From assembly GCA_963848965.1 (NCBI GenBank), contig CAWKFG010000004.1:256001-320000 (forward strand): 64,000 nucleotides of DNA, in the 5' to 3' direction. Source of the DNA: an uncultured bacterium. Its GTDB lineage: Bacteria > Babelota > Babeliae > Babelales > Babelaceae. Under the pieces are notes generated by a model, which saw only the letters and a list, made by a program, of their open reading frames with translations, had not been told where the DNA came from and did not search any database. The first letter of the stretch is position 1. The number at the start of each line of letters is the position of its first letter. Of the stretch, positions 43,546-61,723 are shown piece after piece. Made by a program: the position numbers and the translations under genes.

Positions 43546-44340
43546 ATGATACACAAAAAAAATATTTTTTTTCTTGTACTAAGTTTAGCAAACTGTATAA
43601 CTATGAGCGCACGACAAGAAGTTAAGAAAGCTTTTATTGTCTCAGGTCCTAAAAGCGGTACTCATCTTGCAGCAAAACTAGCAAAAAAACTTATGAAAGG
43701 CCGCTATAAAAATGCTACTAAATTTCATGATTTTAATATGAAAGAGATACAAAATTTATCTTCAAATACTATCTATCTAAGTCATGCTCCCTGCATTGCT
43801 AACTATACGGAATTTTTTGAAAGAGAACACATACGAGGCATTTTTATCTACAGAGATCCGCGAGATCAACTCATATCAAGTCGTCAATGGATCTACCAAC
43901 ATCCTGCTGTATGGCCAGAATTACAACATCTGCACCCTGATGACCTTCTTCTTACGCTCATCAATAACTATCCATGGGCTTACCCCTTTGGCACGAAAAG
44001 CATAAATAATACGTATCAATACTACTTATCTTGGCAAAAACATCCTTATGTGTATACAACAACGTTTGAACGGCTTGTAGGTCCTCAAGGAGGTGGTACA
44101 AGAGAAGAGCAACTTACAGAAATTTATAATATAGCAAAACATCTTAATAAAGATCTTTCGCAAGAGCAAGCAGAACAGTTAGCAAATCAGCTTTTTGGTG
44201 GGACTAATACTTTTAGAAATGGAAAAATAGGAGCATGGAAAAAAAAGAGCGGTTTTAAAGCAGTTCACAAAAGAGCCTTTAAAAAAGTAGCAGGAAAGCT
44301 TCTTATCAAACTAGGTTATGAAAAGGATCTTAATTGGTAA
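43546..44340 (+). CDS. Sulfotransferase with signal peptide (paralog 1)
   Basis: PSB loop GPKSGTHL, YRDPRDQLIS, TFERL, FRNGKIGAWK. Confidence 0.85.
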   Translation: MIHKKNIFFLVLSLANCITMSARQEVKKAFIVSGPKSGTHLAAKLAKKLMKGRYKNATKFHDFNMKEIQNLSSNTIYLSHAPCIANYTEFFEREHIRGIFIYRDPRDQLISSRQWIYQHPAVWPELQHLHPDDLLLTLINNYPWAYPFGTKSINNTYQYYLSWQKHPYVYTTTFERLVGPQGGGTREEQLTEIYNIAKHLNKDLSQEQAEQLANQLFGGTNTFRNGKIGAWKKKSGFKAVHKRAFKKVAGKLLIKLGYEKDLNW

Positions 44341-44345
44341 AATTA

Positions 44346-45374
44346 CTACAATGAAAGATGTGAGCGCAAAATAGCATAGAATTCTTGAGTATTATGCTCA
44401 AGAGCTCGCTGAGAAAATACATAAAAAAGATCTGGCCTCTGTTTTTGTAGAGCATGAGCATTATCAACTTGATGAGAAGTAGTAGCAGACTCTAATGGTA
44501 TTATAACGGAAGGCTTGCTAAAAAAGTTTAATTCAAATAAGGTACCTGCCCCTGCTCGCGCTATAACGATATCTGCAGCTTGGTAACACACATGAATATC
44601 ATGCCGATAATCAAATACAAGAGTCGGAAAAGAGGAATCTTCATAAGCTTTTTGCACATTCTTACTATCAGCACTTCCTGTTTGATGAATAACCTGTATT
44701 GAAGAATGAAGAAAGCTCGACTCTGTAAGAAATTTTAAACATGCCCTGTTTAAAAACTGTGAGCCTTGTGATCCTCCTAAAAGTAATAACGTCTTACGTT
44801 GAGGATCAAGACCTAAAGTTATGCATGCTTGAGCTTTACTCACTAGATTCTCTTTTTTAAAACGGAGAGGGTATGGCGCAACCTGAACTTTCTTAGAAGC
44901 AAAGAATGTGCATGTTTGATTAAAACATACAAGCACTTGTTGAGAAAGAGGAGCAAGCCATTGTACTGCTCTACCAGGAACAGCATTCAACTCATACGTA
45001 GTAATAGGAATGCGCAAAAGCCATCCGGCTATACATACAGGCAATGAAACATAACCTCCCATGCTTATTATCTTTTCTGGTTTTAAGCGCCACAATGTTT
45101 TTAAGCTCATAAAAAAAGCTTTTACAAATTGCCCGATAAAAAGAGGATATCTAAGAAAGCGAGAGCGCGGAAAGTTAGTAAGCGTAAGTGGTACATAAAA
45201 AGAGATATTCGTATAAAAACTGGTAATAGCTTTATCGAGGTTACTGTCTGTTGAAAAAAGAAGCACTTTATAATCAGGATTATGCTCAATAAAAGTTTGG
45301 CCATACGTTATACCTGGCACTATATGGCCACCCGATTTTCCTGCAACAATACAAAGTACTTTTTGCTTACTCAT
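44346..45374 (-). CDS. murG: Lipid II GlcNAc transferase MurG
   Basis: GKSGGHIVP, MGGYVSLP, ELNAVPG, GGSQGS, HQTG, RAGAGT, HQVDNA. Confidence 0.95.
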   Translation of the reverse strand: MSKQKVLCIVAGKSGGHIVPGITYGQTFIEHNPDYKVLLFSTDSNLDKAITSFYTNISFYVPLTLTNFPRSRFLRYPLFIGQFVKAFFMSLKTLWRLKPEKIISMGGYVSLPVCIAGWLLRIPITTYELNAVPGRAVQWLAPLSQQVLVCFNQTCTFFASKKVQVAPYPLRFKKENLVSKAQACITLGLDPQRKTLLLLGGSQGSQFLNRACLKFLTESSFLHSSIQVIHQTGSADSKNVQKAYEDSSFPTLVFDYRHDIHVCYQAADIVIARAGAGTLFELNFFSKPSVIIPLESATTSHQVDNAHALQKQRPDLFYVFSQRALEHNTQEFYAILRSHLSL

Positions 45375-45446
45375 AGTTAATATCCCTTATAGTAGTAGCT
45401 ACTCTCTTATACTACCATAAGGGATAAAGTTTACAAACTGTAGTAC

Positions 45447-46370
45447 CTATTTCTTAACAGGCTTTTTCCAACCAGTTTCCCACCAGTGAATAGCTGCAGA
45501 CTCTTGTCTACACACTTTCTGCTTAATTTCATCTTCAGTAAGCTTTCTGAATGCTCTGCTTTGTTGATAGCATCCAAGAGGATAAAAGAACGTTGCAGGA
45601 AACGCTATGTCTTTATACCCTTCTTTATTAGCATGTTTTAAAAAGAGGCTGCCAAGAAAGCCTGGTCCTGTTTTGAGCACTACTTCTTGATGTAAGAGAG
45701 TTGTAGGAGTTTTCCATCTGCTCCTTAAACCTTTTATATATGCTTTTAGTATTGGATGTCCTGGAACAGCTCCTATTATCGCATTATTTGGACCAACTAA
45801 TGTACTGTCCATAGGATGAAGACCAACATAAAAATCATAATGCTTATTAAGGACAGCAAATACTTCCGGTTTTATACATTCAAAATCCATATCAACATAG
45901 AGACCACCAAATTGGTTAAGAATCTCCATACGTAAAATATCTGCTCTTTGCCCATAGGTTTTTGCATCATCATAGAGATCACGATTAGCAAAATTAAATT
46001 TTTCTACGTCTTTATCTGTCCACAGTTTATATTCCCATCCAGGCCACTGTTTCCATGTTTTTTGCCATGCTTTATACTCTTGTGGCAGAGGGCTACCAAT
46101 CCATATTTGGTGAATAATACGAGGTATGCGATACTTAGCTTCAGTATACTCAGTAACTTTATTTCTTTCATAGAGTGAACGATAAAATGTAAGTAACTGA
46201 CCACGTAGTCCCATACGCATTTTATAATACTTGCTAAAATAGGTGTCATCCTTTCCAAGTGCATTATCAAAATCTGGTAAGTATGCCTTTTTAGGCGAAA
46301 TACTTCGTGCTTCTTGACTAGAGAGAATGCTCATAATCATAAGAAAAGTAACTTTTAAAAAGTGCTTCAT
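45447..46370 (-). CDS. GT32 (OCH1-like, DXD) glycosyltransferase with signal peptide
   Basis: IPRIIHQIWIG, WEYKLWTD, ADILRMEILNQFGGLYVDMD, KTGP, AIHWW. Confidence 0.9.
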   Translation of the reverse strand: MKHFLKVTFLMIMSILSSQEARSISPKKAYLPDFDNALGKDDTYFSKYYKMRMGLRGQLLTFYRSLYERNKVTEYTEAKYRIPRIIHQIWIGSPLPQEYKAWQKTWKQWPGWEYKLWTDKDVEKFNFANRDLYDDAKTYGQRADILRMEILNQFGGLYVDMDFECIKPEVFAVLNKHYDFYVGLHPMDSTLVGPNNAIIGAVPGHPILKAYIKGLRSRWKTPTTLLHQEVVLKTGPGFLGSLFLKHANKEGYKDIAFPATFFYPLGCYQQSRAFRKLTEDEIKQKVCRQESAAIHWWETGWKKPVKK

Positions 46371-46382
46371 AGTCTCCTTATC

Positions 46383-47312
46383 CTAATTAAATGCTTTCTT
46401 CTTTTTTGCTTTCTTTTTCCAACTTTGAGTCCACCAATGAATAGCTGCAGACTCAGGTTTTATTGCAGCTCGCTTAACGTTTTCAAAGTATTTTTGAAGA
46501 TATTCTCCTTGACGAAGTCCTAAAGGATAAAAAAGAGAAGGCGGTAATGCAATATCAATAGTAGTCTTTCCTGCATATTTCATAAATACTGTTGTAAAAA
46601 GGCCAGGGCCTGTTTTTAACACTACCTCACTATACGAACCTGTAGTTGGTTTATACCAATTTTTGCGTATTGCATGTATATACTTTTCAAGAATTGGGTG
46701 ACCTTTAACAGAACCTATAATTGCATTGTTCACGCCAAAGAGACTACAATCGACAGGCGTAATACCTGTATAAAAGTCATAGTAACGATGCAAAAGTGTA
46801 AACAGCTCTGGATTTAAACACTCAAAATCCATATCAACATAGAGCCCACCAAACTGGTTAAGAAGTTCAATACGCAAAAGATCCGCTTTCTGGCCATATG
46901 TTTTAGCTGCTTCAAAGAACTCTCTATTGACAAGCTGAAGCTCTTTTACATCTTTATCTGTCCACAATTTATATTCCCATCCTGGCCAATTTTGCCATGT
47001 TGCTTGCCACTTTTTATATCTATCAGGAAGCGGGCTACCCAACCATATCTGATGAATAATACGCGGAATATTTAATGTAGGAAAGGGTTTTATATTCAGC
47101 AGCTTATTTTTTTCATATAACTCTCTAAAAAGCTCTAAAGTCTTTGAGCGCAAAGAAAGTCGATTTTTATAATATGTATTATAGTATCTATTACCCTTAC
47201 CAAGCGAAAGATCAAAATCGGGAGAATATTTCTGTAAAAGGGATGGTACTCCAAAGGCTAGTGTTCCATAACCTACCATCATTACTAATTTTATGCTTAT
47301 AGTGTAAGCCAT
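46383..47312 (-). CDS. GT32 (OCH1-like, DXD) glycosyltransferase with N-terminal hydrophobic leader
   Basis: IPRIIHQIWLG, ADLLRIELLNQFGGLYVDMD, KTGP, AIHWW; tandem paralog of previous gene. Confidence 0.9.
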   Translation of the reverse strand: MAYTISIKLVMMVGYGTLAFGVPSLLQKYSPDFDLSLGKGNRYYNTYYKNRLSLRSKTLELFRELYEKNKLLNIKPFPTLNIPRIIHQIWLGSPLPDRYKKWQATWQNWPGWEYKLWTDKDVKELQLVNREFFEAAKTYGQKADLLRIELLNQFGGLYVDMDFECLNPELFTLLHRYYDFYTGITPVDCSLFGVNNAIIGSVKGHPILEKYIHAIRKNWYKPTTGSYSEVVLKTGPGLFTTVFMKYAGKTTIDIALPPSLFYPLGLRQGEYLQKYFENVKRAAIKPESAAIHWWTQSWKKKAKKKKAFN

Positions 47313-47337
47313 ACTACTCCTTTAATGTCTCTGGATA

Positions 47338-47982
47338 TTACTGTAATGAGTAATGTCTTAAACGATCAATTTTGCCTTTTAAGTTTTTCGTTTGAAAAAA
47401 AGCATTACAATAGGTTTTCTCTACCATTCGATTACAGTCATGCACAAATACGTCTACCTGCTTTTCACTTTTCGAAGCAAGCCTTGCTGCTGTATAAATA
47501 CTTTTCATTCGTCCAGGTGCACCAGCCCCTACACCAAGCGGAGCATCAACAAAAATTATATCCCAAGAAACAGCACTTATATGAGGAGGCAATTCGAGTT
47601 TTAAAAGGTTTTTTGATCCCTGTTCAAGTAATACCTTCCATTGATCTACATGAGTTTCATACTTTATTAAGTACGCTTCGAGAGAAGGAATTTGTTCTTT
47701 TATTCGATTAAACCATTGAACATTATTTTCTAAAAATACCGTTTTACCCCCTTTGTTTAACTCTAACCATAAACTACTATCTCTTCCTAAACCAAAAACT
47801 AACACATTACAAGGAGCTTTTTTATATATAGTTTCAGCAATAAGAGAATACTCTTGTACCGAAAGCTGGTTAGGATTATTTTTTACAAGCTCTACAATTT
47901 TCTTGTAATAGACCTGGGACAGTCCTGCAAGAGATAAAGACAAAGTACTCAAAACACCTATCCCATAAATATACTTTTTCAT
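47338..47982 (-). CDS. DUF579 polysaccharide O-methyltransferase (plant GXM/IRX15-like)
   Basis: PCNVLVFGLGRDS..W..LN.GGKTVFLE, WDIIFVDAP.G..APGRMKSIYTA, DVFVHDCNR.VE; probable start MKKYIY at 47982. Confidence 0.85.
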   Translation of the reverse strand: MKKYIYGIGVLSTLSLSLAGLSQVYYKKIVELVKNNPNQLSVQEYSLIAETIYKKAPCNVLVFGLGRDSSLWLELNKGGKTVFLENNVQWFNRIKEQIPSLEAYLIKYETHVDQWKVLLEQGSKNLLKLELPPHISAVSWDIIFVDAPLGVGAGAPGRMKSIYTAARLASKSEKQVDVFVHDCNRMVEKTYCNAFFQTKNLKGKIDRLRHYSLQ

Positions 47983-48016
47983 GTTTACCTTTCTCTTAAC
48001 ATTCTGAAAGTGTACA

Positions 48017-49294
48017 TCATTCTTTACTATCTTCTTCCTTTTGTAAAACATAGGTGTGATATTTATTATACAAAGTAGAAGAAGTTGTTATAATGTCGTT
48101 TCCTTTAATTTTATTACATGTTCCAAGAATAACATTTTTCGGTTTGACCAAGGTAATAAACGTATTCTTGAGATTTCTATAGCAATAGCGCTTAACCCAC
48201 TTTCTTCCTACTACTGCTTTACTTAAATAGTGCTCATAATTAGAATATACATCTCTCATTGCTTCACGTACATCATTGATTTTACAATTAAAGTAGTACC
48301 CTATATGCTTTTTAAATTCACTATAGTAGGCAGGCTCCATAATAAGACTTGGTACAGCTCGTACCAAACCTGTATCACAAATGGTGGTATGCGCAGTATT
48401 TTTACTCAAAATACATGGTATACCTAAAGCGAGTGCTTCACGAGGTGTAATAGAAAAACCTTCTCCTTTTGATATAAAAACATAACAATCAAGTGATGAT
48501 AAGAAAGAGAAATATTCCTTTCTGTTAAATCGCTTTTTTATCAGCTGTATATTAGGACAGCCTGCTACTTTTATCAGATTCTCTAGAGAGCTCTCAATCT
48601 CGCTTTCATCCTTTCTTCTTGCATGTACCCTTAGTTGCACTTGAGCGTTATTACCAAACTCTCTTATAAACGCTCTTACCAATGATTCCAAATTTTTACG
48701 AGGATAAAATGTCCCCGAAACACCAAAAGTAAAGAGTTCATTTTTTTTGTCCTTTAATGGTTGCTCAAGAAATTCATCAAGATACAAACTATAGGGAATA
48801 ACAAAAATAGGGATCTTTACGCCAGACCGCTTATATACAGGTACAAGAAATTTATCTGGAACTACTACCGCATCAAAACTGTGATTAAGAATAGTAACCC
48901 ATTGTTGAGGGATCTCTGTTGATTCAAACATTGAATAAGCAATTTTTATGGGGCTTTCCTGAGGTACCGTATATGCTGGAAATACCCGAGGAATCCATAA
49001 AAGATCACAAAAAAGTGCAACTTTACCTGGAGTCTTATCTGGATTTTGTGCGATTTTTCGCACCCGCAATGGTATATCGTCATAATTAAGCCCATAAGCA
49101 CATCTTGTACGAATAAAGTTTACCTTAAGGTTATCTTTAAATGTATCAATTAATATAATAGGAAATCGGGCTAGACTTTCTGAAAATTGCATTTCACCTA
49201 TGACAGTTACATCATAGTGAGAATTTACAGCATCGAGAGCACTATACGCTGTAAAAAGACAGAAAAAAATACTTATAAAAAAGAGCTTCATCAC
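48017..49294 (-). CDS. GT4-like (GT-B) glycosyltransferase with signal peptide, paralog A
   Basis: KIAYSMFESTEIP, RKN, SKGEGFSITPREALALGIPCI (EX7E motif). Confidence 0.85.
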   Translation of the reverse strand: MMKLFFISIFFCLFTAYSALDAVNSHYDVTVIGEMQFSESLARFPIILIDTFKDNLKVNFIRTRCAYGLNYDDIPLRVRKIAQNPDKTPGKVALFCDLLWIPRVFPAYTVPQESPIKIAYSMFESTEIPQQWVTILNHSFDAVVVPDKFLVPVYKRSGVKIPIFVIPYSLYLDEFLEQPLKDKKNELFTFGVSGTFYPRKNLESLVRAFIREFGNNAQVQLRVHARRKDESEIESSLENLIKVAGCPNIQLIKKRFNRKEYFSFLSSLDCYVFISKGEGFSITPREALALGIPCILSKNTAHTTICDTGLVRAVPSLIMEPAYYSEFKKHIGYYFNCKINDVREAMRDVYSNYEHYLSKAVVGRKWVKRYCYRNLKNTFITLVKPKNVILGTCNKIKGNDIITTSSTLYNKYHTYVLQKEEDSKE

Positions 49295-49392: not shown

Positions 49393-50631
49393 TCATTTAA
49401 TAACGTATGTATAATATTTCTTATAGAGAGCCAATGAATTTGTTATAAGATAACCATCTTTAATTTCATTAGATTGTCCAAGTATAAGTTTCTTTGGCTT
49501 TACCAGAGTCACATACCTATTTTTGAGCCTCTTATAAGAATAGTACGCGCTCCATAAGCGTCGTTGAATAGCATTACCAAGATAGTGATCATAATTTTTA
49601 TAGACATCTCTCATCGCTTTTCTTACGTCTTCTTCTTTGCAATTAAAATAATAACCTATCTGGCCATTAAATGAAGGGTAAAACGCAGGCTCTGCAATAG
49701 AGCAAGGAACTGGATACACTAAACCTGTATTACAAATGGTGATATGCGCAGTATTTCTACTTAAAATACAGGGTATACCTAAAGCAAGTGCTTCACGAGG
49801 TGTAATAGAAAAACCTTCTCCTTTTGATATAAAAACATAACAATCAAGTGATGATAAGAAAGAGAAATATTCCTTTCTGTTAAATCGCTTTCTTATTAGC
49901 TCTACATTAGAACAATCTGCTGCTTTTATTATATTCTTTATAGAGCGCTCAATTTCGCTTTCATCCTTTCTTCTTGCATGTACCTTTAGTTGCACTCGAG
50001 CGTTAGTACCAAACTCTTTTATAAACGCTCTTACAAGTAATTCCAAATTTTTACGAGGATAAAATGTCCCCGAAACACCAAAGGTAAAGAGTTCATTTTT
50101 CTTGTCTTTTAATGGTTGCTTAAGAAACTCATCAAGATACAAACCATAGGGAATAACAAAAATAGGAATCTTTACCCCAGATCGCTTATATATAGGCACA
50201 AGAAATTTATCTGGAACTACTACTGCATCAAATCTATTATTAAGAACAGTAACCCATTGCGGCGGTATAGCGCTTGACTCTAGCATTGAGTAGGCAATTT
50301 TTATAGGAGAATTCGGTACTAACCGTGCAGGAAATATATGCTTAGTCCAAAGAAGATCACAAAAAAGTGTAACTTTACCTGACGTCTTGTCAGAATTCTT
50401 TGCAATATGCTGCACCTTTAAGGGAACATCCTCAAAAGATGGCTCCATATAAGGCCTGCTAAAAATGAAATTTACTTTTAGATCATCTTTCAGCATGTCT
50501 ATTAATACAATAGGAAATCGTGCTAGACTTTCTGAAAATTTCATCTCACCTACTACTGTTACGTCATAGTTAGGTGCAGTATAAAACGTAAACAAAAAGC
50601 TAAAAACATAACCTGCTATAAGGAATCTCAT
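49393..50631 (-). CDS. GT4-like glycosyltransferase with signal peptide, paralog B
   Basis: Probable start MRFLIA at 50631; same family motifs as paralog A. Confidence 0.85.
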   Translation of the reverse strand: MRFLIAGYVFSFLFTFYTAPNYDVTVVGEMKFSESLARFPIVLIDMLKDDLKVNFIFSRPYMEPSFEDVPLKVQHIAKNSDKTSGKVTLFCDLLWTKHIFPARLVPNSPIKIAYSMLESSAIPPQWVTVLNNRFDAVVVPDKFLVPIYKRSGVKIPIFVIPYGLYLDEFLKQPLKDKKNELFTFGVSGTFYPRKNLELLVRAFIKEFGTNARVQLKVHARRKDESEIERSIKNIIKAADCSNVELIRKRFNRKEYFSFLSSLDCYVFISKGEGFSITPREALALGIPCILSRNTAHITICNTGLVYPVPCSIAEPAFYPSFNGQIGYYFNCKEEDVRKAMRDVYKNYDHYLGNAIQRRLWSAYYSYKRLKNRYVTLVKPKKLILGQSNEIKDGYLITNSLALYKKYYTYVIK

Positions 50632-50758: not shown

Positions 50759-51181
50759 TTATTCCTCCATACAGCGCACAAGAAATCCTTCCAGTGCCTT
50801 AGAAAGTTCACTATCATTGAGGGATGCTAATGCACACCTATGCTCTGATGAAAGCTTAAAATTACGAGAATAACTTCTTTGCCTGCTTTCAAACATCTTT
50901 TTTTTCTTAATCTCTTCTACTAATTTAAATTTAAGCTGAGTAATGCGTGGTTTATCTAAGTTTTTATTAATTGAGTCTAACAATACCTTAGAAAGCATAA
51001 ACAATTCTTGCATCCAGTGAGCTTCATATACTCCTATTACAAGAGTAGCATCATAAATTTTTTCCAATCGTATTCGTGTTTCTAATGAACCAACAATAGA
51101 CTGCCAATTTCGCAAAAGCTGAAATCGCCAATCATTATTAGAACCTAGCACATTAGATAAAAGATGATTAAGGTTAAGCAT
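50759..51181 (-). CDS. DUF721/DciA-family protein
   Basis: LLRNWQSIVG..L..TR, LVIGVYEAHWMQELFML..LL..IN..L..ITQLKF; probable start MLNLNH. Confidence 0.75.
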   Translation of the reverse strand: MLNLNHLLSNVLGSNNDWRFQLLRNWQSIVGSLETRIRLEKIYDATLVIGVYEAHWMQELFMLSKVLLDSINKNLDKPRITQLKFKLVEEIKKKKMFESRQRSYSRNFKLSSEHRCALASLNDSELSKALEGFLVRCMEE

Positions 51182-51348
51182 GGTATTCATTTCATTAAGA
51201 CACATACACTTCTTATACATTTAATATAAAAATGATAAGAAACTCAAGTCTTGACTTTTGTATAATTAATCTTGCTAACTACTGTAGTAAGCTATTTATA
51301 ATAATGGCCCTCTGCGATCGATACAACCTTACTATACATGGGACATAG

Positions 51349-52590
51349 ATGCAGAAATATATCTTAAAGTTTATCTTTTTTGTCATTTTAAATCTCGTAT
51401 GTCGCACTTCAAAAACCGCATTTGATTTAACTCTTATTGGTCCATTACATTTTGCTGATGGGTTAGGACGCTCAACAATTATACTAATGGATATGTTGAA
51501 GAGAGATTTACGCATAAATTTTATTTGTTCTCGAGAAAAAATTCGGTTAACTGATGTTGTCTCTTCTATTAGACCTATTATAATGAATCCCGACACATCA
51601 CCTGGTAAAGTCTCATTACTTGTTGATGCACTATGGTATACATGGCATCCGGCATATTTATATGTGCCAACTAGTGATATAAAGATTGCCTATTCAATGC
51701 TTGAATCAACAGAGATTCCCCAACAATGGGTTACTATTCTGAATAACCAATTTGATGCAGTAGTAGTACCTGATAAGTTTCTTGTACAAGTATACAAACA
51801 ATCGGACGTAAAGATTCCTATTTTCTTGCTACCATGTGGCTTGTATCTTGAGGAATTTTTAAATCACCCTCAAAAAAAACAAAAAAACACCCCTTTTGTT
51901 TTTGGTATGTCAGCAACACTTACACCACGCAAAAATTATCTGACACTGGTTAAAGCATTTGCTCAAGAATTCGGTAACAATCCTCTTGTACAATTAAAGC
52001 TTCACGCGCGTAGCACTGATAAAAAAAGCCTTGCATCTTTTAAACAAATAATAAAGCATTTACATCTTAATAACGTAGAACTTACTGTTAAATCCTCTAC
52101 TCAACAAGAATATTTAGAATTCATGAAATCTCTTGATTGCTATATTTTACTTTCTAAAGGAGAAGGTTTTTCTATTACACCTCGTGAAGCACTCGCTTTA
52201 GGTATACCATGTATTTTGAGTAAAAATACTGCGCATACCACCATTTGTAACACAGGTTTGGTACGAGCTGTACCAAGTCTTATTATGGAGCCTGCCTACT
52301 ATAGTGAATTTAAAAAGCACATAGGGTACTACTTTAATTGTAAAATCAATGATGTACGTGAAGCAATGAGAGATGTATACTCTAATTATGAGCACTATTT
52401 AAGTAAAGCAGTAGTAGCAAGAGAATGGGTCCAGCAATACACCTTAAAAAACTTAAGACCATTTTACCTAAACTTAATCAAACCGAAAAAAGTCACTCTC
52501 GGTCACTATAACAGTATTAACGAGCATGGTCTTATTACCAACTCAAAAGAACTTTATAGGAAATATATAAACCTCGTTGTCAGATCCTAA
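51349..52590 (+). CDS. GT4-like glycosyltransferase with signal peptide, paralog C
   Basis: FADGLGR, KIAYSMLESTEIP, SKGEGFSITPREALALGIPCI. Confidence 0.85.
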   Translation: MQKYILKFIFFVILNLVCRTSKTAFDLTLIGPLHFADGLGRSTIILMDMLKRDLRINFICSREKIRLTDVVSSIRPIIMNPDTSPGKVSLLVDALWYTWHPAYLYVPTSDIKIAYSMLESTEIPQQWVTILNNQFDAVVVPDKFLVQVYKQSDVKIPIFLLPCGLYLEEFLNHPQKKQKNTPFVFGMSATLTPRKNYLTLVKAFAQEFGNNPLVQLKLHARSTDKKSLASFKQIIKHLHLNNVELTVKSSTQQEYLEFMKSLDCYILLSKGEGFSITPREALALGIPCILSKNTAHTTICNTGLVRAVPSLIMEPAYYSEFKKHIGYYFNCKINDVREAMRDVYSNYEHYLSKAVVAREWVQQYTLKNLRPFYLNLIKPKKVTLGHYNSINEHGLITNSKELYRKYINLVVRS

Positions 52591-53569: not shown

Positions 53570-54871
53570 TTACTCATAAGAGCTCTTGTAGTTAATCCTC
53601 CCTAAACCATTAACAATTTTTTGATATTTTGCATGTAAAACAGGTGAATTAGTGACTAAGTATCCATCACCTATATAATTATGCTCTCCCAAAATGACTG
53701 TTTTAGGTTTAATAAGAGCTAGATAATAAGATTTTAAATTAGAATAATGATAATGAGATGCCCACCTTCTTCGTTCAGCAGCATTTCTTAAGTAAGCAGA
53801 ATAATTATCATAAACTCTTCGTAAGGCTTGTCGAACATCCGAAAGAAGACAATTAAATTTTTCCCCACAATCAAAACCAAATACAGAATAATAAGCTCGC
53901 TCCCTAAGATTACAATTAACTGCTTCTACAAGACCAGTTCTACATATGCTTGCATGAGCAGTATTATTCGAAAGGATACAAGGAAGTCCAAGAGCCATAG
54001 CCTCACGAGGAGTAGTAGAAAACCCTTCTCCCTTAGAAATGATAGCATAGCAGTCAAGGCTACTCATAAATGCTAGGTATTCTCTATTGGAAAAACTTTT
54101 TTGCTTTATTTTAATATTTTTATATTTTGTTGTTAGTTTTTTTACCTCTGGATCTATTTCTCCCCCTCTTCCATGGATTAAGAGTTGGACCCGTTGATTA
54201 TTTTTAAACTCTTTACTAAATGCTTTTGCTAAAAGCGCATAGTTTTTCTCGGGAACAAATCTTCCTGAATAACCAAAGGTAAATATATTATTTGCTTTAC
54301 TTTTTAAAGGTTGAGTCAAAAATTCATTAAGATAAAGAGGAAGACCCATAGTAAAAATTGGAATTTTAACTCCTGATTGTTCATATACTTCAATTAAAAA
54401 TTCATCCGGTACAGCTACTAAATCAAATTTAGAATTTAAAATATTAACCCACTTTTTTGGTATAGCAGTTGATTCTATCATCGAAATAGCTATCTTCAAA
54501 GAGGAATCTGGTAGAGCTTCATAAGGACTTCCATGTCGAACCCATAATTGCTCAAATATGAGCGCAACTTTTCCCGGTATCTTGTTCGGAGTGTTAACAA
54601 TTGTTTTTACTGATTCAGGAACATCTTTAAAATCAATCGGTACTAACTTACTATGAATAAAGTTTATTTTTAAATCCTGCTTTAACATGTCTATTAGAGT
54701 AATAGGCAATCTTGCAAGCCCATCAGCAAATTTAATAGAGCCTACCACTGTTAAATCAGGAGTTAGATCACCAATTAACGAGCTGCAAAAGCACACTGCT
54801 ATAGCTAATAAATACCTATTTTTATCATAGAACATGATATCCTTTATGATTAAGCAAAACTGATAGACCAA
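53570..54871 (-). CDS. GT4-like glycosyltransferase with signal peptide, paralog D
   Basis: FADGLAR, KIAISMIESTAIP, SKGEGFSTTPREAMALG; true start may be the internal MFYDK. Confidence 0.85.
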   Translation of the reverse strand: MVYQFCLIIKDIMFYDKNRYLLAIAVCFCSSLIGDLTPDLTVVGSIKFADGLARLPITLIDMLKQDLKINFIHSKLVPIDFKDVPESVKTIVNTPNKIPGKVALIFEQLWVRHGSPYEALPDSSLKIAISMIESTAIPKKWVNILNSKFDLVAVPDEFLIEVYEQSGVKIPIFTMGLPLYLNEFLTQPLKSKANNIFTFGYSGRFVPEKNYALLAKAFSKEFKNNQRVQLLIHGRGGEIDPEVKKLTTKYKNIKIKQKSFSNREYLAFMSSLDCYAIISKGEGFSTTPREAMALGLPCILSNNTAHASICRTGLVEAVNCNLRERAYYSVFGFDCGEKFNCLLSDVRQALRRVYDNYSAYLRNAAERRRWASHYHYSNLKSYYLALIKPKTVILGEHNYIGDGYLVTNSPVLHAKYQKIVNGLGRINYKSSYE

Positions 54872-55582
54872 TTAGTCAATTCTACAAAAGAGAACATTTC
54901 CAAATTTTCCTAAAGCCTGCGGTGTTCTATCTTCTTGTACAACTTTAAAGCCTTGTTTTTTAAGCCACGCTTTAAGCTGTGGGTAAAGTATTATACCCTC
55001 ATAAAGTTCAGCAAAGCTTACTTCCGTATAAATAGCCTTAACAGTTTTTAGTATCTTTGTACTTGCTTGAAGTGCAATCGGTTCAGCTCCCTGCATATCC
55101 AGCCACAAAAAGTCTATTCTTTGAAGACCAAGCCTTTGAGCCCACTCATCTAAGGTTATAGTTTCTACAATGGTTTGCTCTGGAAAGGTAATAGTAGGAT
55201 CTACGTTAAGATGCTCCTTAGGCTTAAACAAAGAGCTAGAACCGTTTATATTACCTTGGCTTACAAACATAGTTGCCTTACCATTAGTATTACTTAAAGC
55301 TCTTTGTATACACATAATATTCCTGTGTTTACTTGTTCTTTGTTTCAATTGTTGAAATAAAAGAGGAATTGGTTCAAATGCAAAAATAAAGCCTTTAGGC
55401 CATAGTTTACTCATTTCTATTGTATCTGTTCCGATATGCGCTCCTGCTTCTACAATAATAGGATTTTCTGGAAGATACTTCGCAATAAGGTGCTTAGAGA
55501 TAACCCCTTGTTTAACTTTTGCTTCTAAGGAAATTACAGAACAGGTTAATCCGATCACTATAACACTGAATAAGCTTTTCAT
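54872..55582 (-). CDS. FkbM-family methyltransferase with signal peptide
   Basis: IIVEAGAHIG, FAFEP, ITLDEW, IDFLWLDMQGAE, YTEV. Confidence 0.9.
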   Translation of the reverse strand: MKSLFSVIVIGLTCSVISLEAKVKQGVISKHLIAKYLPENPIIVEAGAHIGTDTIEMSKLWPKGFIFAFEPIPLLFQQLKQRTSKHRNIMCIQRALSNTNGKATMFVSQGNINGSSSLFKPKEHLNVDPTITFPEQTIVETITLDEWAQRLGLQRIDFLWLDMQGAEPIALQASTKILKTVKAIYTEVSFAELYEGIILYPQLKAWLKKQGFKVVQEDRTPQALGKFGNVLFCRID

Positions 55583-55866: not shown

Positions 55867-57108
55867 ATGACTTTTATTAATTGTGTTATATGGAGCTTAA
55901 TGATTCTCTCTACAACATTTGTTAGCTGTAAAGTCGACGTTACACTTATAACACCTTATATAAAATTCGGTTGCAGCGTAAGCAGGCTACCAATAGGATT
56001 TATTGATATTTTAGGAGATACATTACGTTTCAACGTTATTACCAGTAGACCAGTTAAGCCCGACTATACAGATATACCATACCATGTTCAAAAAGTTCTT
56101 AAAAGTCCTTATAAAAAGGCTGGTCAAGTTGCCATACTCTATGATGTTCTTTGGGACTTAGTCAACGAACCAACCAAATTTGTACCTGCTGAAAGTAAAA
56201 TTAAGATAGCTTACTCTATGTTTGAAGCAACAGCAATTCCTCGCAAATGGGTTCAAATACTAAACACTCAATTTGACGCTGTAGTCGTACCAGATAAATC
56301 TTTAATAGATATTTATGTAAGAGGTGGCGTAAAAATACCTGTATTTGAACTGCCAGGAGCATTATACCTTGATGGCTTTTTACGTCAACCAGTTAAAACT
56401 AAGCGCAATAAGATATTTACCTTTGGAACATCAGCTGGATACTTCCCTTGGAAAAATACTGAAGTTTTGATAAAAGCATTTCATAAAGAATTTGGAACTA
56501 ATAAAAACGTGAGACTTATTGTACATTCAAGAGGCGGAACAGACTACGTAAGGAACTCTATTAAAAAACTTTTAAAAGAAGCGAAAGCTAACAATATAAT
56601 ACTTATTGAACAGAGACTTGCTCAAAGTGACTTTATAAAACTTTTATCAAGCTTTGATTGCTATGCATTTTTATCAAAGGGGGAAGGATTCTCTAATACT
56701 CCTCGTGAATTACTTGCAATGGGCATTCCTTGCATTTTAAGCAACAATACTGCACACAGAACCATTTGTAATACTGGTTTTGTAAGAGCTGTTGACTCAA
56801 AAATAAAAGAACCGGCTAACTATCCTCATTTTGGAGGTTATTGCTGTGGCTCATTCTTTAACTGTACCGTTAAAGATGTCAGAGAAGCTTTACGAGACGT
56901 ATATAACAATTATCCTACTTATCTTGCTAAAGCTCATAAAGGAAGAGAGTGGGTTAAAAAGTATGACTATCCTAACTTAAAATTTAAACATTTAAACATC
57001 GTTAAACCGGTCAAAGTCATTCTCGGCAATAGAAACGTCATAAAGAATGACTACCTTATGACTACTTCACCAAAGCTCTATAGAAAATATTTAAGCATCA
57101 TATCTTAG
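55867..57108 (+). CDS. GT4-like glycosyltransferase with signal peptide, paralog E
   Basis: KIAYSMFEATAIP, SKGEGFSNTPRELLAMGIPCI. Confidence 0.85.
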   Translation: MTFINCVIWSLMILSTTFVSCKVDVTLITPYIKFGCSVSRLPIGFIDILGDTLRFNVITSRPVKPDYTDIPYHVQKVLKSPYKKAGQVAILYDVLWDLVNEPTKFVPAESKIKIAYSMFEATAIPRKWVQILNTQFDAVVVPDKSLIDIYVRGGVKIPVFELPGALYLDGFLRQPVKTKRNKIFTFGTSAGYFPWKNTEVLIKAFHKEFGTNKNVRLIVHSRGGTDYVRNSIKKLLKEAKANNIILIEQRLAQSDFIKLLSSFDCYAFLSKGEGFSNTPRELLAMGIPCILSNNTAHRTICNTGFVRAVDSKIKEPANYPHFGGYCCGSFFNCTVKDVREALRDVYNNYPTYLAKAHKGREWVKKYDYPNLKFKHLNIVKPVKVILGNRNVIKNDYLMTTSPKLYRKYLSIIS

Positions 57109-57120
57109 TACTCACTACAA

Positions 57121-57150: not shown

Positions 57151-57162
57151 CTCTGTTTTTGC

Positions 57163-57870
57163 TCAACGTTTTGAGTCATTTTTATCTACTGTAATTGAAT
57201 CCAATAACCAGAGACCTAAATACTTATGAGGTTCATCCTCTTTTATAAGCAAGATCGGTTTTGGTAAACTAAATGGAGGTTTTTCTAAGTCCAAAGGTCT
57301 CCATAAACCCATTGCTATATTAGTATTATGAGGAGTGTTTGGCCATCCTCTCCATGTCGTTGCTAAAAGATATTTAGCTTTACTTTTTTTGAAATTAGCA
57401 AGCGTTGAAAAAACATCCTTATAGGGAAGATGTGCCAGTAAATCGCGGCAAAGAATAAGATCAACTTGAGGAAGATCATCCTTAATAGCATTTAAACGTA
57501 AGAATGTTCTTCCTGGAGAACTATATCGCTTATTATTGTTATTTATAATTTGCTTTACTATATCTACTCCTATATATTTGCATTTTGCTAGCTTAACATT
57601 TTTCATCCAATAAAAGTCGCCACATGGAGCGTCTAACAATGATGTTACTTTCAGCTGTTTTAGCAATTGCGGTAATTTGCGCCTTATGGTTACCGTAAAG
57701 CGCATTGTAGATCCAATACCGGATGCAGTCTCTTTTACACGCCACCCATTTTTATTATATATGTTTGTAAATACAGCTACTGGATCTGAACCTCCCTGAA
57801 CTGCTGCAAAGACAAGAAGTGTTTGCATAAATAAAATCATTTTCTTCATTATCATCTCCTTTATAAGCAT
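57163..57870 (-). CDS. Class I SAM-dependent methyltransferase with signal peptide
   Basis: FTNIY..NGW..ETASGIGS, LLDAPCGDFYW, YIGVDIV, DLILCRDLLAHL. Confidence 0.85.
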   Translation of the reverse strand: MLIKEMIMKKMILFMQTLLVFAAVQGGSDPVAVFTNIYNKNGWRVKETASGIGSTMRFTVTIRRKLPQLLKQLKVTSLLDAPCGDFYWMKNVKLAKCKYIGVDIVKQIINNNNKRYSSPGRTFLRLNAIKDDLPQVDLILCRDLLAHLPYKDVFSTLANFKKSKAKYLLATTWRGWPNTPHNTNIAMGLWRPLDLEKPPFSLPKPILLIKEDEPHKYLGLWLLDSITVDKNDSKR

Positions 57871-58138: not shown

Positions 58139-59359
58139 TTAATAATTAGTTAAATACTTCTTATAAAGCTTTTCTGAGTTAGTTATAAGACAATCTTCCT
58201 CAATACTATTATAGGTATCAAGTACAACTTTCTGTGGCTTTACGAGGTTAAGGTAACGATTTTTTAAATTTCTATATTCATACTGCTTAACCCACTCTCT
58301 TCCTTCTCGGGCTTTTTCAAGCCAATATTCATAGTCCTCAAAAACCTCTTTAATAGCTTTACGAGCTTCTTTGTTTGTGCAACTATAATTGTAACCACAA
58401 AATGTCTTAAAATGAACATAATGAGCTGGAGCTGAAATAGGAGCTTCAACTATCTTGACAAAGCCAGTTTCGCAAATAGTTCTATGTGCAGAGTTATTGG
58501 TAATAATACATGGTACGCCCATTGCTAACGCCTCTCGTGGCGTAATTGAAAACCCTTCACCTTTTGAAAGCAAAACATAACAGTCAACAGAGCCCATAAA
58601 TTCTAAGTACTCAGCTCTTGTGAGATTCTTATTTATAAACTCTATGTTTTTGCATTTAAGATTATCTATTTGGGTACGCACTCTTTTTTGAATTTCCTCA
58701 TTACCACATCTGCCATGTACCTTTAGCTTTACGCCGGGAACATTACCAAATTCCTGTGCAAAAGCATCAATGAGCAGTTCGTGATTTTTATTTTTTGAAT
58801 GAAAACCCGCAGACATACCAAAGGTAAAAATTTCGTTTGCTTTCTCTTTAAGAGGCTTTTCTAAAAACTCATCTAAATAAAGACCACAAGGAAGCACAAA
58901 GATAGGAATTTTTACACCTGATTTGCGATACACTTCGCAGAGAAACTTATCAGGCACTGCCACTGCATCAAACTTTTGATTCAATATTTTTACCCAATGT
59001 ATAGGAATTGCAGTAGACTCTATCATAGAAAACGCTATCTTAATTTCGCTATCAGGAACATAATCAGCAGGTGTATCGGTAACATGCCATAATACATCTA
59101 AGAAGAAGCTCACTTTCCCTGGACTTCTATCAGGATTACGCGCTACTACTTGCACCATCCACGGAACATCCTTAAAGTTAACATTCTTAGAAGTTGGTAC
59201 AAAATTCATTTTTAAATCATCTTTAAAAAGATCTATAAATGCTATAGAGGCCCTTCCTAAACCATCTGCATACAACATAGGACCTACAACTGTCACATCA
59301 TATTTTGCATAGAGCGGTAGTATCAAACTACTTAATAATAACAATTTTATCTGCTTCAT
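58139..59359 (-). CDS. GT4-like glycosyltransferase with signal peptide, paralog F
   Basis: YADGLGR, KIAFSMIESTAIP, SKGEGFSITPREALAMG. Confidence 0.85.
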   Translation of the reverse strand: MKQIKLLLLSSLILPLYAKYDVTVVGPMLYADGLGRASIAFIDLFKDDLKMNFVPTSKNVNFKDVPWMVQVVARNPDRSPGKVSFFLDVLWHVTDTPADYVPDSEIKIAFSMIESTAIPIHWVKILNQKFDAVAVPDKFLCEVYRKSGVKIPIFVLPCGLYLDEFLEKPLKEKANEIFTFGMSAGFHSKNKNHELLIDAFAQEFGNVPGVKLKVHGRCGNEEIQKRVRTQIDNLKCKNIEFINKNLTRAEYLEFMGSVDCYVLLSKGEGFSITPREALAMGVPCIITNNSAHRTICETGFVKIVEAPISAPAHYVHFKTFCGYNYSCTNKEARKAIKEVFEDYEYWLEKAREGREWVKQYEYRNLKNRYLNLVKPQKVVLDTYNSIEEDCLITNSEKLYKKYLTNY

Positions 59360-60582
59360 CTTCTCCTCTTTTGTAATGTTTTATATTTTGTATAGAGCTT
59401 TAAGCAACTTGTTTTCAAAGTGTTTCCTTCAATAGCATTCACATCAGCTAATACTATTTTTTCTGGTTTTGCTAATGTAAGATACTGAGGTTTCAAATTT
59501 TTATATAAAAATTGCTGTGCCCATTTTCTTGCTGCAGGTGCTTTTTCAAGATATGCATCATAGCTGTTGTATACCTCTCTCATCGCTTTTTGTGCGTCTT
59601 CTACAGTACAATTAAGATAATATCCTACACATTTATTAAAGCAGGTATAATACGTTTGTTCTTGTATAAGAGCAGGCACTGCTCTTACAAGTCCTGTATC
59701 ACAAATAGTTTTTTGCGCACTATTGTTAGTAATAATACATGGAATTCCTAGTGCCATAGCTTCACGCGGTGTAAGTGAAAAACCTTCTCCTTTTGAAAGT
59801 AATACATAGCAATCTAAAGACGCTAAAAAATCTCCATATTCTTTTCTTGTAAGCACTTTGTCTATAATTTCAATATTTGTAAGCTTATGACGAGCAATAA
59901 GCGTTTTTAAAGTCGCTGCATAGCCACCACGTCCTTGTAATTTTAATCTTACTCGCTCATCATTGCCAAATTCACGTGCAAATGACTCAATAAGCAGCAT
60001 ACAATTTTTTCTGTCTACAAATTCAGCAGAAACACCAAAAGTAAAGGGAACATTACGCTTTGCTTTCAAAGGCCTTTGAAAAAGATCTTCTGAGCACATA
60101 CCACAAGGAATAACAAAGATAGGAATAGTAACACCCGAATGTATGTATACTTTTTTACAAAATATATCTGGTACTACAACCGCATCTAACCGCTTATTGA
60201 GTATATCTACCCATTCACGAGGAATAGCACTGCCTTCTATCATGGAATATGCTATCTTAATATGACTATTGGGAACATAATCTGCTGGCGTTTCAAATTT
60301 ATGCCACAAAATATCGGTTAAAAGTGCTACTTTACCTGGCTGATTATCTTTCTTTACAAGAATGGTTTGCACACTCAATGGAATATCGCTCAGATCATAA
60401 TCACCAGGGGTGGGAATAACATTTATAGAAAGATCATCTTTAAGGCATTCAACAATACCAAGAGAAATACGAGAAAGACTTGCAGCAAATTTTACCTGGC
60501 CTATAACAGTAAGATCATATGCTTGAACTCCAATGCACCACTGTACAAGGAACACTACTGTCACTCTTTTACTAACTCTCAT
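59356..60582 (-). CDS. GT4-like glycosyltransferase with signal peptide, paralog G
   Basis: KIAYSMIEGSAIP, SKGEGFSLTPREAMALG; 4-nt overlap with paralog F. Confidence 0.85.
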   Translation of the reverse strand: MRVSKRVTVVFLVQWCIGVQAYDLTVIGQVKFAASLSRISLGIVECLKDDLSINVIPTPGDYDLSDIPLSVQTILVKKDNQPGKVALLTDILWHKFETPADYVPNSHIKIAYSMIEGSAIPREWVDILNKRLDAVVVPDIFCKKVYIHSGVTIPIFVIPCGMCSEDLFQRPLKAKRNVPFTFGVSAEFVDRKNCMLLIESFAREFGNDERVRLKLQGRGGYAATLKTLIARHKLTNIEIIDKVLTRKEYGDFLASLDCYVLLSKGEGFSLTPREAMALGIPCIITNNSAQKTICDTGLVRAVPALIQEQTYYTCFNKCVGYYLNCTVEDAQKAMREVYNSYDAYLEKAPAARKWAQQFLYKNLKPQYLTLAKPEKIVLADVNAIEGNTLKTSCLKLYTKYKTLQKRRR

Positions 60583-60702
60583 ACTAGTATTTCTCTCCTT
60601 ACCTACTGAGGCTTCTTCTGCAGTGTAGATGTAAATAATAGGTAGTACATGATACTATACTGAAAGATATTTTTACTGACAAGAGAATAAAACCAAAAAT
60701 AT

Positions 60703-60734
60703 AAAAAAAGAGAGCAGAAAATATCTGCTCTCTT
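60703..60734 (-). terminator. Rho-independent terminator after GT32 gene
   Basis: AAGAGAGCAGA-aaata-TCTGCTCTCTT with adjacent A-run. Confidence 0.8.
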
Positions 60735-60742
60735 ACTCTTAT

Positions 60743-61723
60743 CTATAATTCTGGTACATGAGCTTGTGGTTTACGCCAACTACCGGCCCACCAATGTATT
60801 GCAAGAGTTTCAGGTTTAGAAACTTTGCCTTTTAATACCGTTGCTATAGGATAGCCTAAGTGTTTCGCTTGATGAAAACCAAGTGGATAAAAGAATGTTG
60901 GAGGAAAGATAATATTTCTATGTTGACTCTTAACCCCATATTCCCAAACTACACCACTTAAAAATGCAGGCCCAGTTTTAAATATTATCATATTCTGTTC
61001 CTCTTGCGTTACTCCAGAGCGCAATAGAGTCCACCTATTTTTTAATTTCTTTATATAGCCTTTTACAATAGGATGACCAGGAACAGAGGCAATGAGAGCA
61101 TTATTTACAGATACTTTACGCAAATCTAGTGGCTCAAGTCCTGCATAAAAATCATATGCTTTATGTAAGGTAGTAAACATTTCAGGATTAAGGCATTCAA
61201 AGTCTACATCAACATAAAGGCCACCAAATCTTTCAAGGATCTCCATACGTGCAATATCCGAGCGTTGTCCATAGTTTTTAGATGCATCATAAATACTCTT
61301 ATTTACGAGATTGAGCTTTTCTATATCTTTATCGGTCCACAGTTTGTATTCCCATCCTGGAATTGATTGCCACGTTTGCTGCCATTTTCTATATTTCTCT
61401 GGAAAGGGACTACCAAGCCATATTTGATGCACTATAAGAGGAATACACGGTCTACTTTTAATCGTTGTATTTGTTAGCCTATTCTCTTCATAAAGATCTT
61501 TACAAAATTGATAAAATGCAGAAACTGGTTTTGGACATTCCTCTTCTTTATCTCTCCACGGTAACCTACCATATCTTAAAGAGTTTATTAATGGCCAATA
61601 AAACCTTCCAAAATATGAATCTCCTTTTCCTAAAGAGATTTCAAAAGAAGGACTGTGATCTTGCAAGCTTGCGCCTAATTCAAATGAGATACCAGTCAAA
61701 AAGACTAATAAACGTTTCTTCAT
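60743..61723 (-). CDS. GT32 (OCH1-like, DXD) glycosyltransferase with signal peptide
   Basis: IPLIVHQIWLG, SDIARMEILERFGGLYVDVD, KTGP, AIHWW. Confidence 0.9.
   Translation of the reverse strand: MKKRLLVFLTGISFELGASLQDHSPSFEISLGKGDSYFGRFYWPLINSLRYGRLPWRDKEEECPKPVSAFYQFCKDLYEENRLTNTTIKSRPCIPLIVHQIWLGSPFPEKYRKWQQTWQSIPGWEYKLWTDKDIEKLNLVNKSIYDASKNYGQRSDIARMEILERFGGLYVDVDFECLNPEMFTTLHKAYDFYAGLEPLDLRKVSVNNALIASVPGHPIVKGYIKKLKNRWTLLRSGVTQEEQNMIIFKTGPAFLSGVVWEYGVKSQHRNIIFPPTFFYPLGFHQAKHLGYPIATVLKGKVSKPETLAIHWWAGSWRKPQAHVPEL

Follow-up and report, generated by a model that had tools for sequence, protein, structure and literature searches.

Between positions 43546 and 61723 of the window analyzed here, a 64,000-nucleotide stretch of DNA from an uncultured bacterium of the Babelota (Dependentiae/TM6), a phylum of protist parasites, lie the genes for 15 glycan-building or glycan-modifying enzymes, all of which begin with an export-type leader. 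Judged from their sequences, these enzymes are likely to be exported. We propose, at about even confidence, that once outside the cytoplasm they would form a host-fed pathway building a methylated, sulfated glycan that coats the parasite's own envelope or progeny. The strongest evidence for export is that donor-making enzymes themselves bear leaders. The window corresponds to G000:C4:256001-320000, where G000 is the genome under study (1.73 Mb, 5 contigs, 88.7% complete). Cluster positions are in window coordinates, wider counts come from 261 Babelota genomes (the phylum) and from 41 genomes of the family, and published work is cited by PMC number.

Leaders on cluster enzymes and on donor-making enzymes

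The cluster contains 17 main open reading frames (ORFs). Pfam assigns the 15 enzymes to seven GT4 and three GT32 (PF04488) glycosyltransferases (GTs), two Sulfotransfer_1 proteins, one IRX15/GXM (DUF579) protein, one FkbM protein and one class I methyltransferase, and places MurG and DciA among them (Table 1). Catalytic motifs are intact in all 15 (EX7E, DXD, and those binding 3'-phosphoadenosine 5'-phosphosulfate (PAPS) or S-adenosylmethionine (SAM)). An earlier note on this DNA had listed the same seven, three and two enzymes together with three methyltransferases, and had seen no Wzx/Wzy, ABC exporter or donor gene in the window; the Pfam matches and motifs bear out that inventory, and no such gene was seen among the window ORFs, 20 of which were Pfam-scanned.

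In each of the 15 enzymes, 19-34 residues with an uncharged hydrophobic core stand ahead of the domain, and MurG and DciA lack such a leader. This much of the earlier description stands; the leaders had also been called basic, which does not hold for GT4e (55867), whose leader has zero basic residues. Leaders were called by our own rule (n, h and c regions, a hydrophobicity cut-off and a cleavage site) rather than by SignalP. The full signal was found in 12 of the 15, and the remaining three are near-misses: GT4b has no rule-conforming cleavage site, and GT32b and DUF579 fall just below the hydrophobicity cut-off. The leaders look mostly cleavable. A Shine-Dalgarno-like site is present at 12/15 leader-bearing starts, and the likely starts of DUF579, GT4b, GT4d and the class I methyltransferase lie 7-23 codons inside the longest ORF.

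For the orientation of the leaders, we aligned 113 of 120 listed GT4 homologue rows; the seven dropped were mostly truncated or had mis-called starts, and among them were a GT32-GT4 fusion and an intact row with a short leader (P0046). A leader is present in 110 of the 113 (median 25 amino acids). The N-terminal side of the core is more basic than the C-terminal side in 97 of these leaders, equal in 10 and less basic in 3, and an earlier motif-based pass over all 120 homologues, of which 97 were scored, gave the same charge bias. By the positive-inside rule the more basic flank stays inside, so the leaders should adopt an N-in/C-out topology with the catalytic domain outside. The uncharged stretches of the homologues are also short (median 16). 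The charge bias and short cores together argue against N-out anchors, which the earlier note had named as a finding that would count against its proposal. In Candidatus Babela massiliensis, which with other Babeliales supplies the named homologues of GT4f, SignalP sums on a scale of 0-3 are 2, 1, 0, 1, 1 and 1 for six GT4s, 2 for FkbM, 1 for Gmd, 1 for a sulfotransferase and 0 for a leaderless FkbM paralogue; its porins score comparably at 1, 0 and 1 (PMC4378268 supplement). That genome may be among those we searched, so these figures are not independent of the phylum counts.

The genes for SecA, SecY, LepB, three GspD proteins and GspE/F/G/O were found in G000. Two other routes were rejected: lipoprotein anchoring, given a loose lipobox in just 3 of 35 enzymes and no Lgt match in G000, and Tat export, given no match there for TatC/TatA.

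Leaders on donor-making enzymes were judged by eye. The UDP-glucose dehydrogenase (Ugd) of G000 has a leader and keeps its catalytic Cys motif, and a leader is present at all 30 best-scoring Ugd loci (best 30 viewed; the family occurs in 191 genomes). Babelota PAPS synthetases bear one in 13/13 whole copies (14 matches in the 261 genomes, one split). For Gmd the count is 23 of 44 viewed copies, after two rule calls were corrected by eye, and leader-bearing ManC, Fcl and WecB occur in several Babelota genomes. Leaderless and leader-bearing donor enzymes are found side by side in some genomes (L074, L078), an internal control indicating that the leader is a separate addition to these enzymes. 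In one Gmd (L083:1405-2610) the leader stops right before an ancestral-looking start Met, as if prepended to an old gene. On a quick tree, Gmd leader gain needs 7 changes, and the starred branches of that tree force just 1, which fits either a single or a repeated gain. The Gmd of G000 consists only of broken pieces (C4:5-922) in a foreign-looking stretch of 58-76% GC and was not counted; C4:1-6400, with its first 4 kb at 58-76% GC, looks foreign or mis-joined.

Similar leaders occur in the environmental chlamydiae, where 12 of 16 whole PAPS synthetase copies bear one (151 genomes of the order). When 12 Babelota and 12 chlamydial copies are placed on one tree, the two groups intermix, with one mixed pair at 96/89. 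With 55 of 80 DUF579 loci viewed, a leader is present in 5 of the 6 top chlamydia-type records and in 0/49 others (one false flag); the free-living relatives of DUF579 are leaderless and its nearest leader-bearing relatives are chlamydial. Chlamydial Ugd was rejected as a further case, being mostly leaderless (a leader at just 1/10 loci examined). At three environmental chlamydial loci (L124:3785-5295, L127:5228-6648 and L130:5117-6603) a leader-bearing glycosyltransferase-looking protein directly precedes a leader-bearing DUF579; a fused homologue of this protein (P0139) carries PF25342.

The alternative that the enzymes never leave the cytoplasm treats the leaders as N-out anchors, cytoplasmic-face tethers or vestiges; the glycan would then be built inside the cell and leave it through an unrecognized transporter. 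These families are indeed normally cytoplasmic, some leaders score as transmembrane (TM) segments and not as signals, the genome is incomplete and murJ adjoins one island. We nevertheless regard this as very improbable, given the N-in charge bias, the short uncharged stretches and the spacing of as little as 19 residues before the first strand of the fold. Moreover, 12/15 genes offer no second in-frame start downstream of the core and ahead of the domain, and leaderless paralogues of FkbM (C1:372686-373336 in G000), Gmd and glucose-6-phosphate dehydrogenase (G6PD) exist beside leader-bearing ones, marking the leader as a distinct class.

Within the cluster, pairwise identity is 45-71% among the GT4s and 44-55% among the GT32s, and GC content is 34% versus 38% in the remaining window. 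GT4a and GT4c, 58% identical overall, share identical 32- and 55-residue blocks around the donor-binding motif. Recent gene conversion between the two is not shown by the DNA, which aligns at 77% overall across the shared blocks.

Table 1. Genes of the cluster, in window coordinates
Gene	Position	Strand	Evidence and leader
Sulfotransferase ST1	43546..44340	+	PF00685, E 4.5e-5; PAPS-binding motifs intact; leader, 28 aa to domain
MurG (housekeeping, outside pathway; negative control)	44346..45374	-	PF04101/PF03033; domain from residue 5; no leader
GT32a, DXD glycosyltransferase	45447..46370	-	PF04488; DXD at 158; leader
GT32b	46383..47312	-	PF04488; 55% identical to GT32a; weaker leader, core hydrophobicity 1.74, below cut-off
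DUF579/GXM-type, predicted uronic-acid O-methyltransferase	47338..47982	-	PF21729, E 2.4e-49; leader; likely start 47982, ORF reaches 48051
GT4a	48017..49294	-	PF00534; EX7E motif; leader
GT4b	49393..50631	-	71% identical to GT4a; leader; likely start 50631, ORF reaches 50688
DciA (housekeeping, outside pathway)	50759..51220	-	PF05258; no leader call
GT4c	51349..52590	+	Pfam, motif, leader
Sulfotransferase ST2	52720..53550	+	PF00685, E 6.8e-14; motifs intact; leader
GT4d	53570..54835	-	Pfam, motif, leader; likely start 54835, ORF reaches 54871
FkbM-family methyltransferase	54872..55582	-	PF05050; leader
GT4e	55867..57108	+	Pfam, motif; leader without basic residue, loose lipobox
Class I SAM-dependent methyltransferase	57163..57849	-	PF08242; leader; likely start 57849, ORF reaches 57870
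GT4f	58139..59359	-	19-residue leader directly before first strand (residues 22-26) of GT-B fold; model pLDDT 95.9
GT4g	59356..60582	-	Pfam, motif, leader
GT32c	60743..61723	-	PF04488; DXD at 170; leader

Assembly genes and further islands

No conventional assembly line for a surface glycan was found in G000, which gave no match for Wzx (PF01943), Wza, Wzz, WcaJ, GT-C, WecA/MraY (PF00953), LpxB or LpxC. An E. coli Wzc query matched just a ParA-like protein there, and the priming transferase PF02397 is found in none of its ORFs and in 3 of the 261 phylum genomes. Also without a match in G000 were MetK, ATP sulfurylase, APS kinase and intact epimerases. Family- and phylum-wide counts agree with these absences: LpxC and MetK each occur in 0/41 family genomes, and LpxC in 54/261 across the phylum. 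Together with the N-in/C-out leaders and the genes for SecA, SecY, LepB and a type II secretion system (T2SS), the lack of an identifiable assembly line lends sequence-level support to the extracytoplasmic location that the earlier note had suggested. Its proposal of host-supplied donors fares well for SAM and PAPS, for which host dependence is supported, and G000 also has three ATP/ADP carriers; donor-making enzymes bear leaders too, so the supply would not be simply ready-made.

Published work on the lineage gives a similar picture. The table for B. massiliensis lists zero MraY/Rfe, MetK, Wzm, Wzx, ManC and WcaJ, yet Gmd is present, and ATP sulfurylase is listed as unexplained in Babela. Loss of lipopolysaccharide (LPS) and a T2SS have been published for the Babeliales (PMC4776705); for B. 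massiliensis the T2SS is the only secretion system reported, type III secretion being reported absent (PMC4378268). With respect to peptidoglycan, G000 has MurG, MurJ, MurC/D/F, FtsW and penicillin-binding proteins, with no MraY and no clear MurE found, and B. massiliensis likewise lists no COG0472.

G000 contains other leader-bearing loci of this type. A second island (C2:54487-71676) has 13 genes, including GT2, GT32 and Ugd; smaller glyco-islands of the same kind lie at C4:79767-82322 and C2:21493-23574, and further glyco loci at C4:660412-663714 and C4:788410-790086. Together these loci include a lone GT32, GT47/RXYLT1-like enzymes and unknown families. A GT4-unknown-GT4 fusion adjoins murJ at the murJ-lon site, which in a relative (G007) is occupied by that genome's whole cluster. 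In total, 31 of 35 glyco-enzymes or island genes in G000 are leader-called, and one GT4 is leaderless. Across the phylum, 35 of 261 genomes contain the GT4 family (two by weak matches), often as arrays. Twenty island regions in 13 relatives add GT34, GT90, GT23-like, GT47-like, GT61, GT14, GT17, Anp1 and PIG-L; we take the labels GT14, GT23, GT47 and GT62 to be the CAZy equivalents of the Pfam matches. Of the transferases and modifiers in these islands, 128/148 are leader-called, several of the misses being cut ORFs. In one relative, ankyrin repeats are fused to GT2.

Compartment of the exported enzymes and rival explanations

The ends of the leaders differ between protein classes. In G000, the leader ends in x-Met-[EQDNK] (x small) in 92 of 106 leader-bearing ankyrin proteins versus 0 of 31 leader-called glyco-enzymes; the mature chain of a protein so marked would begin with Met. 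A looser form of the rule captures 95/106 ankyrins, 12/12 C2H2 proteins, 1/31 glyco-enzymes and 1/14 periplasmic or outer-membrane residents. In the relatives, the mark is found in 1/128 glyco-enzymes, and the ankyrin proteins there numbered 6. Altogether 257 of 744 leader-called ORFs in G000 fall in the Met class, whose families genome-wide are ankyrin, WD40, C2H2, leucine-rich repeat (LRR), RING and UCH. Window examples are 23151-25271, 26909-28360 and 33288-34940, and a tandem array of seven exported eukaryotic-type multi-C2H2 proteins at L272:4096-11884 (G000:C1 about 234-242 kb) belongs entirely to this class. A Pfam scan of leader-called soluble proteins over about 770 kb of G000 annotated 26 of 58 Met-class proteins, all of them ankyrin, WD40, C2H2, LRR, RING, UCH, TPR or DnaJ, and 58 of 119 non-Met proteins, among them all nine classical periplasmic residents. 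Without the mark, the glyco-enzymes group with envelope residents, which favors the periplasm or the vacuole lumen over the host cytosol. Met after the signal may serve to stabilize or sort proteins destined for the host cell.

The non-Met class also includes leader-bearing G6PD (C1:560495-561979), two thioredoxin reductases (C1:156527-157645 and C1:487111-488607), adenylate kinase (C1:95564-96271) and AAA ATPases. Of 23 whole G6PD copies viewed in the family, 8 bear a leader, and several genomes hold one copy with and one without. DsbB is found in 0/41 family genomes, and DsbA gave no match in G000. The absence of DsbB and the leaders on G6PD, the thioredoxin reductases and adenylate kinase fit an exported space that is reducing and contains nucleotides. 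Growing B. massiliensis takes the form of amorphous bodies within a single vacuole, and its progeny form via internal membranes. Elsewhere in the window, five normally soluble enzymes bear leaders (2245-3801, 16167-17036, 28414-29091, 30239-31630 and 9333-10865, labeled by eye AAA ATPase, HAD hydrolase, nitroreductase, nucleoside hydrolase and PI-PLC-like protein), and four tandem short leader-bearing paralogues with internal hydrophobic segments (5278-7621) are possibly a membrane family expanded in Babela.

In the pathway we propose, SecA/SecYEG would export the enzymes and LepB would cleave most of the leaders, the working space being either the periplasm of the replication body or, via the T2SS, the vacuole lumen beyond. 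Host ATP and SAM would cross the vacuole and periplasm en route to inner-membrane carriers. Exported Ugd would convert UDP-glucose to UDP-glucuronate in that space, and in relatives exported ManC, Gmd and Fcl with PAPS synthetase would supply GDP-sugars and PAPS. GT4, GT32, GT2 and GT47-like enzymes would attach sugars directly to an envelope acceptor, in which case no flippase is needed. The GXM-type enzyme would O-methylate uronic acid, with chain capping by the sulfotransferases, and the resulting variable coat would replace O-antigen on infectious progeny, like the surface glycans of giant viruses. More tentatively, and at somewhat less than even confidence, this may be general to the Babelota and some environmental chlamydiae: the replication-body periplasm would be a reducing, nucleotide-rich 'bacterial Golgi' that runs the whole glycan pathway on host nucleotides (synthesis of PAPS, GDP-sugars and UDP-glucuronate, NADPH regeneration, glycosyl-, methyl- and sulfotransfer) and coats progeny without lipid carrier or flippase, while Met after the signal marks separate host-bound cargo.

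The enzymes might instead be Sec and T2SS (or vesicle) effectors that act in the host cytosol on host molecules or on the outer face of the vacuole. The three GspD secretins and GspE/F/G/O would provide a route, and the T2SS is the only reported system in B. massiliensis, where ankyrin proteins are thought to enter the amoeba cytoplasm (PMC4378268). In Waddlia, a housekeeping enzyme with a signal peptide reaches host compartments (PMC13318545). In the cytosol every donor is plentiful, which best suits enzymes that need ATP, GTP, NAD or NADPH. Pfam also gives the GT32s, which share a DXD fold, weak matches to TcdA/TcdB domains, and one relative has the ankyrin-GT2 fusion. We consider such a role unlikely, however, since the glyco-enzymes lack the Met mark of most ankyrin and all C2H2 proteins and, by N-degron rules, many of them are predicted to begin, once mature, with residues (K, R, Y, F, D, L) that would destabilize a protein in a eukaryotic cytosol. 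If the host makes PAPS and UDP-glucuronate itself, exported donor enzymes would be superfluous, and the clustered, variable, multi-family sets resemble one glycan pathway rather than single-target effectors.

The product of enzymes acting in the vacuole lumen might also be a free matrix polymer or a decoration of the vacuole membrane, which is host-derived, with the bacterial surface left untouched. Secreted glycogen enzymes of C. trachomatis use host UDP-glucose via SLC35D2 (PMC4829429), the amorphous bodies of B. massiliensis grow within one vacuole, and leader-bearing DUF579 and PAPS synthetase also occur in environmental chlamydiae. This we hold to be distinctly unlikely: many retaining GTs plus caps fit a complex surface glycan better than a store, the GT4s resemble those of viruses, and the family has no known LPS as a surface cover.

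Several observations weigh against the proposed surface pathway. Our leader rule flags 708 of 1276 G000 ORFs (55%) and gives false positives in 4/49 cytoplasmic controls, and signal peptides are reported on 44% of Chromulinavorax proteins (PMC6561590). Because leaders are this common in the genome (about half of proteins), 15 of 15 leaders are by themselves weak evidence, and the 15 genes represent only about 6 independent families rather than fifteen draws. Over 19 residues, hydrophobicity of the 15 leaders is 0.96-1.94; those of GT4a, GT4e and FkbM reach the level of genuine membrane anchors (PBP1A, 1.80; a PASTA protein, 1.72), which makes leader cleavage unsure. Published values for B. massiliensis include a SignalP score of 0 with one TM segment for both its PAPS synthetase and one of its GT4s, and 0/0 (SignalP/TM) for its GT34 (PMC4378268 supplement). 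Some Met-less proteins may be delivered to the host, as 17 of the 58 annotated non-Met proteins are eukaryote-like repeat proteins. In 21 of 44 cases Gmd is leaderless, as are most family ManC copies, and these lie beside multi-pass membrane proteins, suggesting a second, more conventional glycan system in the phylum; in L205, L209, L061, L065, L070 and L080, the membrane proteins beside leaderless ManC and Gmd look GT-C-like by eye. The GT4 family also occurs in 12 of 35 genomes of an LPS-rich family (f17), which rules out simple replacement of LPS. The assembly of G000 is incomplete (88.7%) and likewise yielded neither MraY nor a clear MurE, which makes its absences soft; no Wzy match was obtained there with two E. 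coli queries, Wzy being too divergent for exclusion, and five ABC-2 permeases are present, none with a glycan neighbor.

To the same side belong leaderless GalU, PGM/PMM, GlmM and GlmU and six EamA proteins in G000; with these genes, donors may be partly self-made. The earlier note had allowed that matching donor synthesis and polysaccharide export might be encoded elsewhere in the genome: some donor synthesis is, and no export machinery was found. Golgi nucleotide-sugar carriers belong to the same superfamily as EamA, and a true Golgi analogue could be imagined in which a periplasmic pathway is fed with the parasite's own cytoplasmic UDP-sugars by EamA/DMT carriers. We think this improbable, and no better placed than a vacuolar polymer, because SAM (no MetK in the family) and PAPS would go unsupplied, no EamA gene lies inside an island, and B. 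massiliensis has Gmd without ManC. GalU, moreover, stands at a conserved housekeeping site, also in island-less genomes, and a leaderless GT4 is its likely cytoplasmic user.

Relatives, known systems and significance

The best PDB match to the GT4f model is chlorovirus 3oy2 (E 1.5e-14, TM-score 0.60), its matches in BFVD are phage GT4s, and the Atlas clusters nearest to the GT4 homologue P0082 are 97-100% viral; a PDB sequence search found distant GT4s only. For DUF579, the relatives with names are bacterial. A eukaryotic (Golgi) origin is unsupported for either family, leaving the earlier note's term 'Golgi-like' as an analogy. By family and source names, GXM enzymes methylate glucuronic acid, which pairs the GXM-type enzyme with exported Ugd. 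Chlorovirus B736L (3oy2) is a proposed mannosyltransferase of uncertain target, and Mimivirus fibril glycans, made from virus-encoded donor pathways, mediate uptake by amoebae (PMC9614988).

Like the C. trachomatis system of inclusion glycogen, in which a vacuolar parasite exports nucleotide-sugar enzymes fed by host UDP-glucose (PMC4829429), the pathway proposed here would draw on the host, as suggested by missing MetK, PAPS synthesis and ManC. It differs in having Sec-type leaders instead of type III secretion, and in comprising at least 30 enzymes from many families, sulfo- and methyltransferases and leader-bearing donor enzymes included, where glycogen is one storage alpha-glucan. With the clusters of giant viruses (chlorovirus, Mimivirus; PMC9614988) and phage GT4 islands it shares soluble GTs, donor enzymes and methyltransferases with no recognized flippase or polymerase, the GT4 fold nearest B736L and phage GT4s, and similar protist hosts. 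However, most PBCV-1 GTs are without signal peptide and predicted to be soluble and cytoplasmic (PMC9614988), whereas these enzymes have leaders in a two-membrane cell, and the cluster is chromosomal and interleaved with murG and dciA, with pbp1A likewise interleaved. The pathway would work like chlamydial glycogen synthesis and be stocked like a giant-virus cluster, as a member of neither.

Other systems share single features. The Golgi is the location of eukaryotic OCH1-type GT32, GXM/IRX15 and sulfotransferases, and eukaryotes generally hold their donor enzymes in the cytosol. N-in leaders that place domains in a lumen and shared Pfam families, extended in the relatives by GT34, GT90, GT23-like, GT47-like, GT61, GT14, GT17 and Anp1, are points in common; the nearest named relatives here are bacterial or viral, the leaders mostly look cleavable and donor enzymes bear leaders as well. 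Wzx/Wzy- and ABC-dependent O-antigen and capsule loci are likewise variable islands of GTs, donor enzymes and modifiers, but no priming transferase, flippase, co-polymerase, Wza or LPS was found here and the enzymes bear leaders. Host-targeting GT effectors (Legionella Lgt/SetA, TcdA/TcdB) also have a DXD GT-A domain and use host donors; the GT32s differ as single domains of about 300 amino acids with weak Pfam similarity and no delivery module, clustered with capping enzymes. The signal-peptide-bearing Ndk paralogue of Waddlia is a single-enzyme precedent (PMC13318545). The described Babelota Sec/T2SS secretome agrees in lineage, kind of leader and share of proteins (44-55%), while the main texts of those papers treat ankyrins, proteases and hydrolases and leave glycosyltransferases aside; 'glycosyl' occurs once across the three, as glycosylase (PMC6561590, PMC4776705, PMC4378268). 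In the openly licensed PMC and bioRxiv literature we found no published description of such a pathway.

Bacterial surface glycans are normally built from cytoplasmic nucleotide sugars and flipped on lipid carriers, since the periplasm is without ATP or activated donors. If the pathway proposed here is real, exported transferases and donor enzymes across the phylum would represent a different way of building a bacterial glycan, and the space around the cytoplasm of an energy parasite would be metabolically active. The proposal would give a role to orphan enzymes of Babela (ATP sulfurylase, Gmd without ManC) and offers a candidate for the cover of an LPS-less diderm. Because B. massiliensis grows in Acanthamoeba the pathway can be tested, and it would offer many uncharacterized families of soluble GTs, sulfotransferases and methyltransferases.

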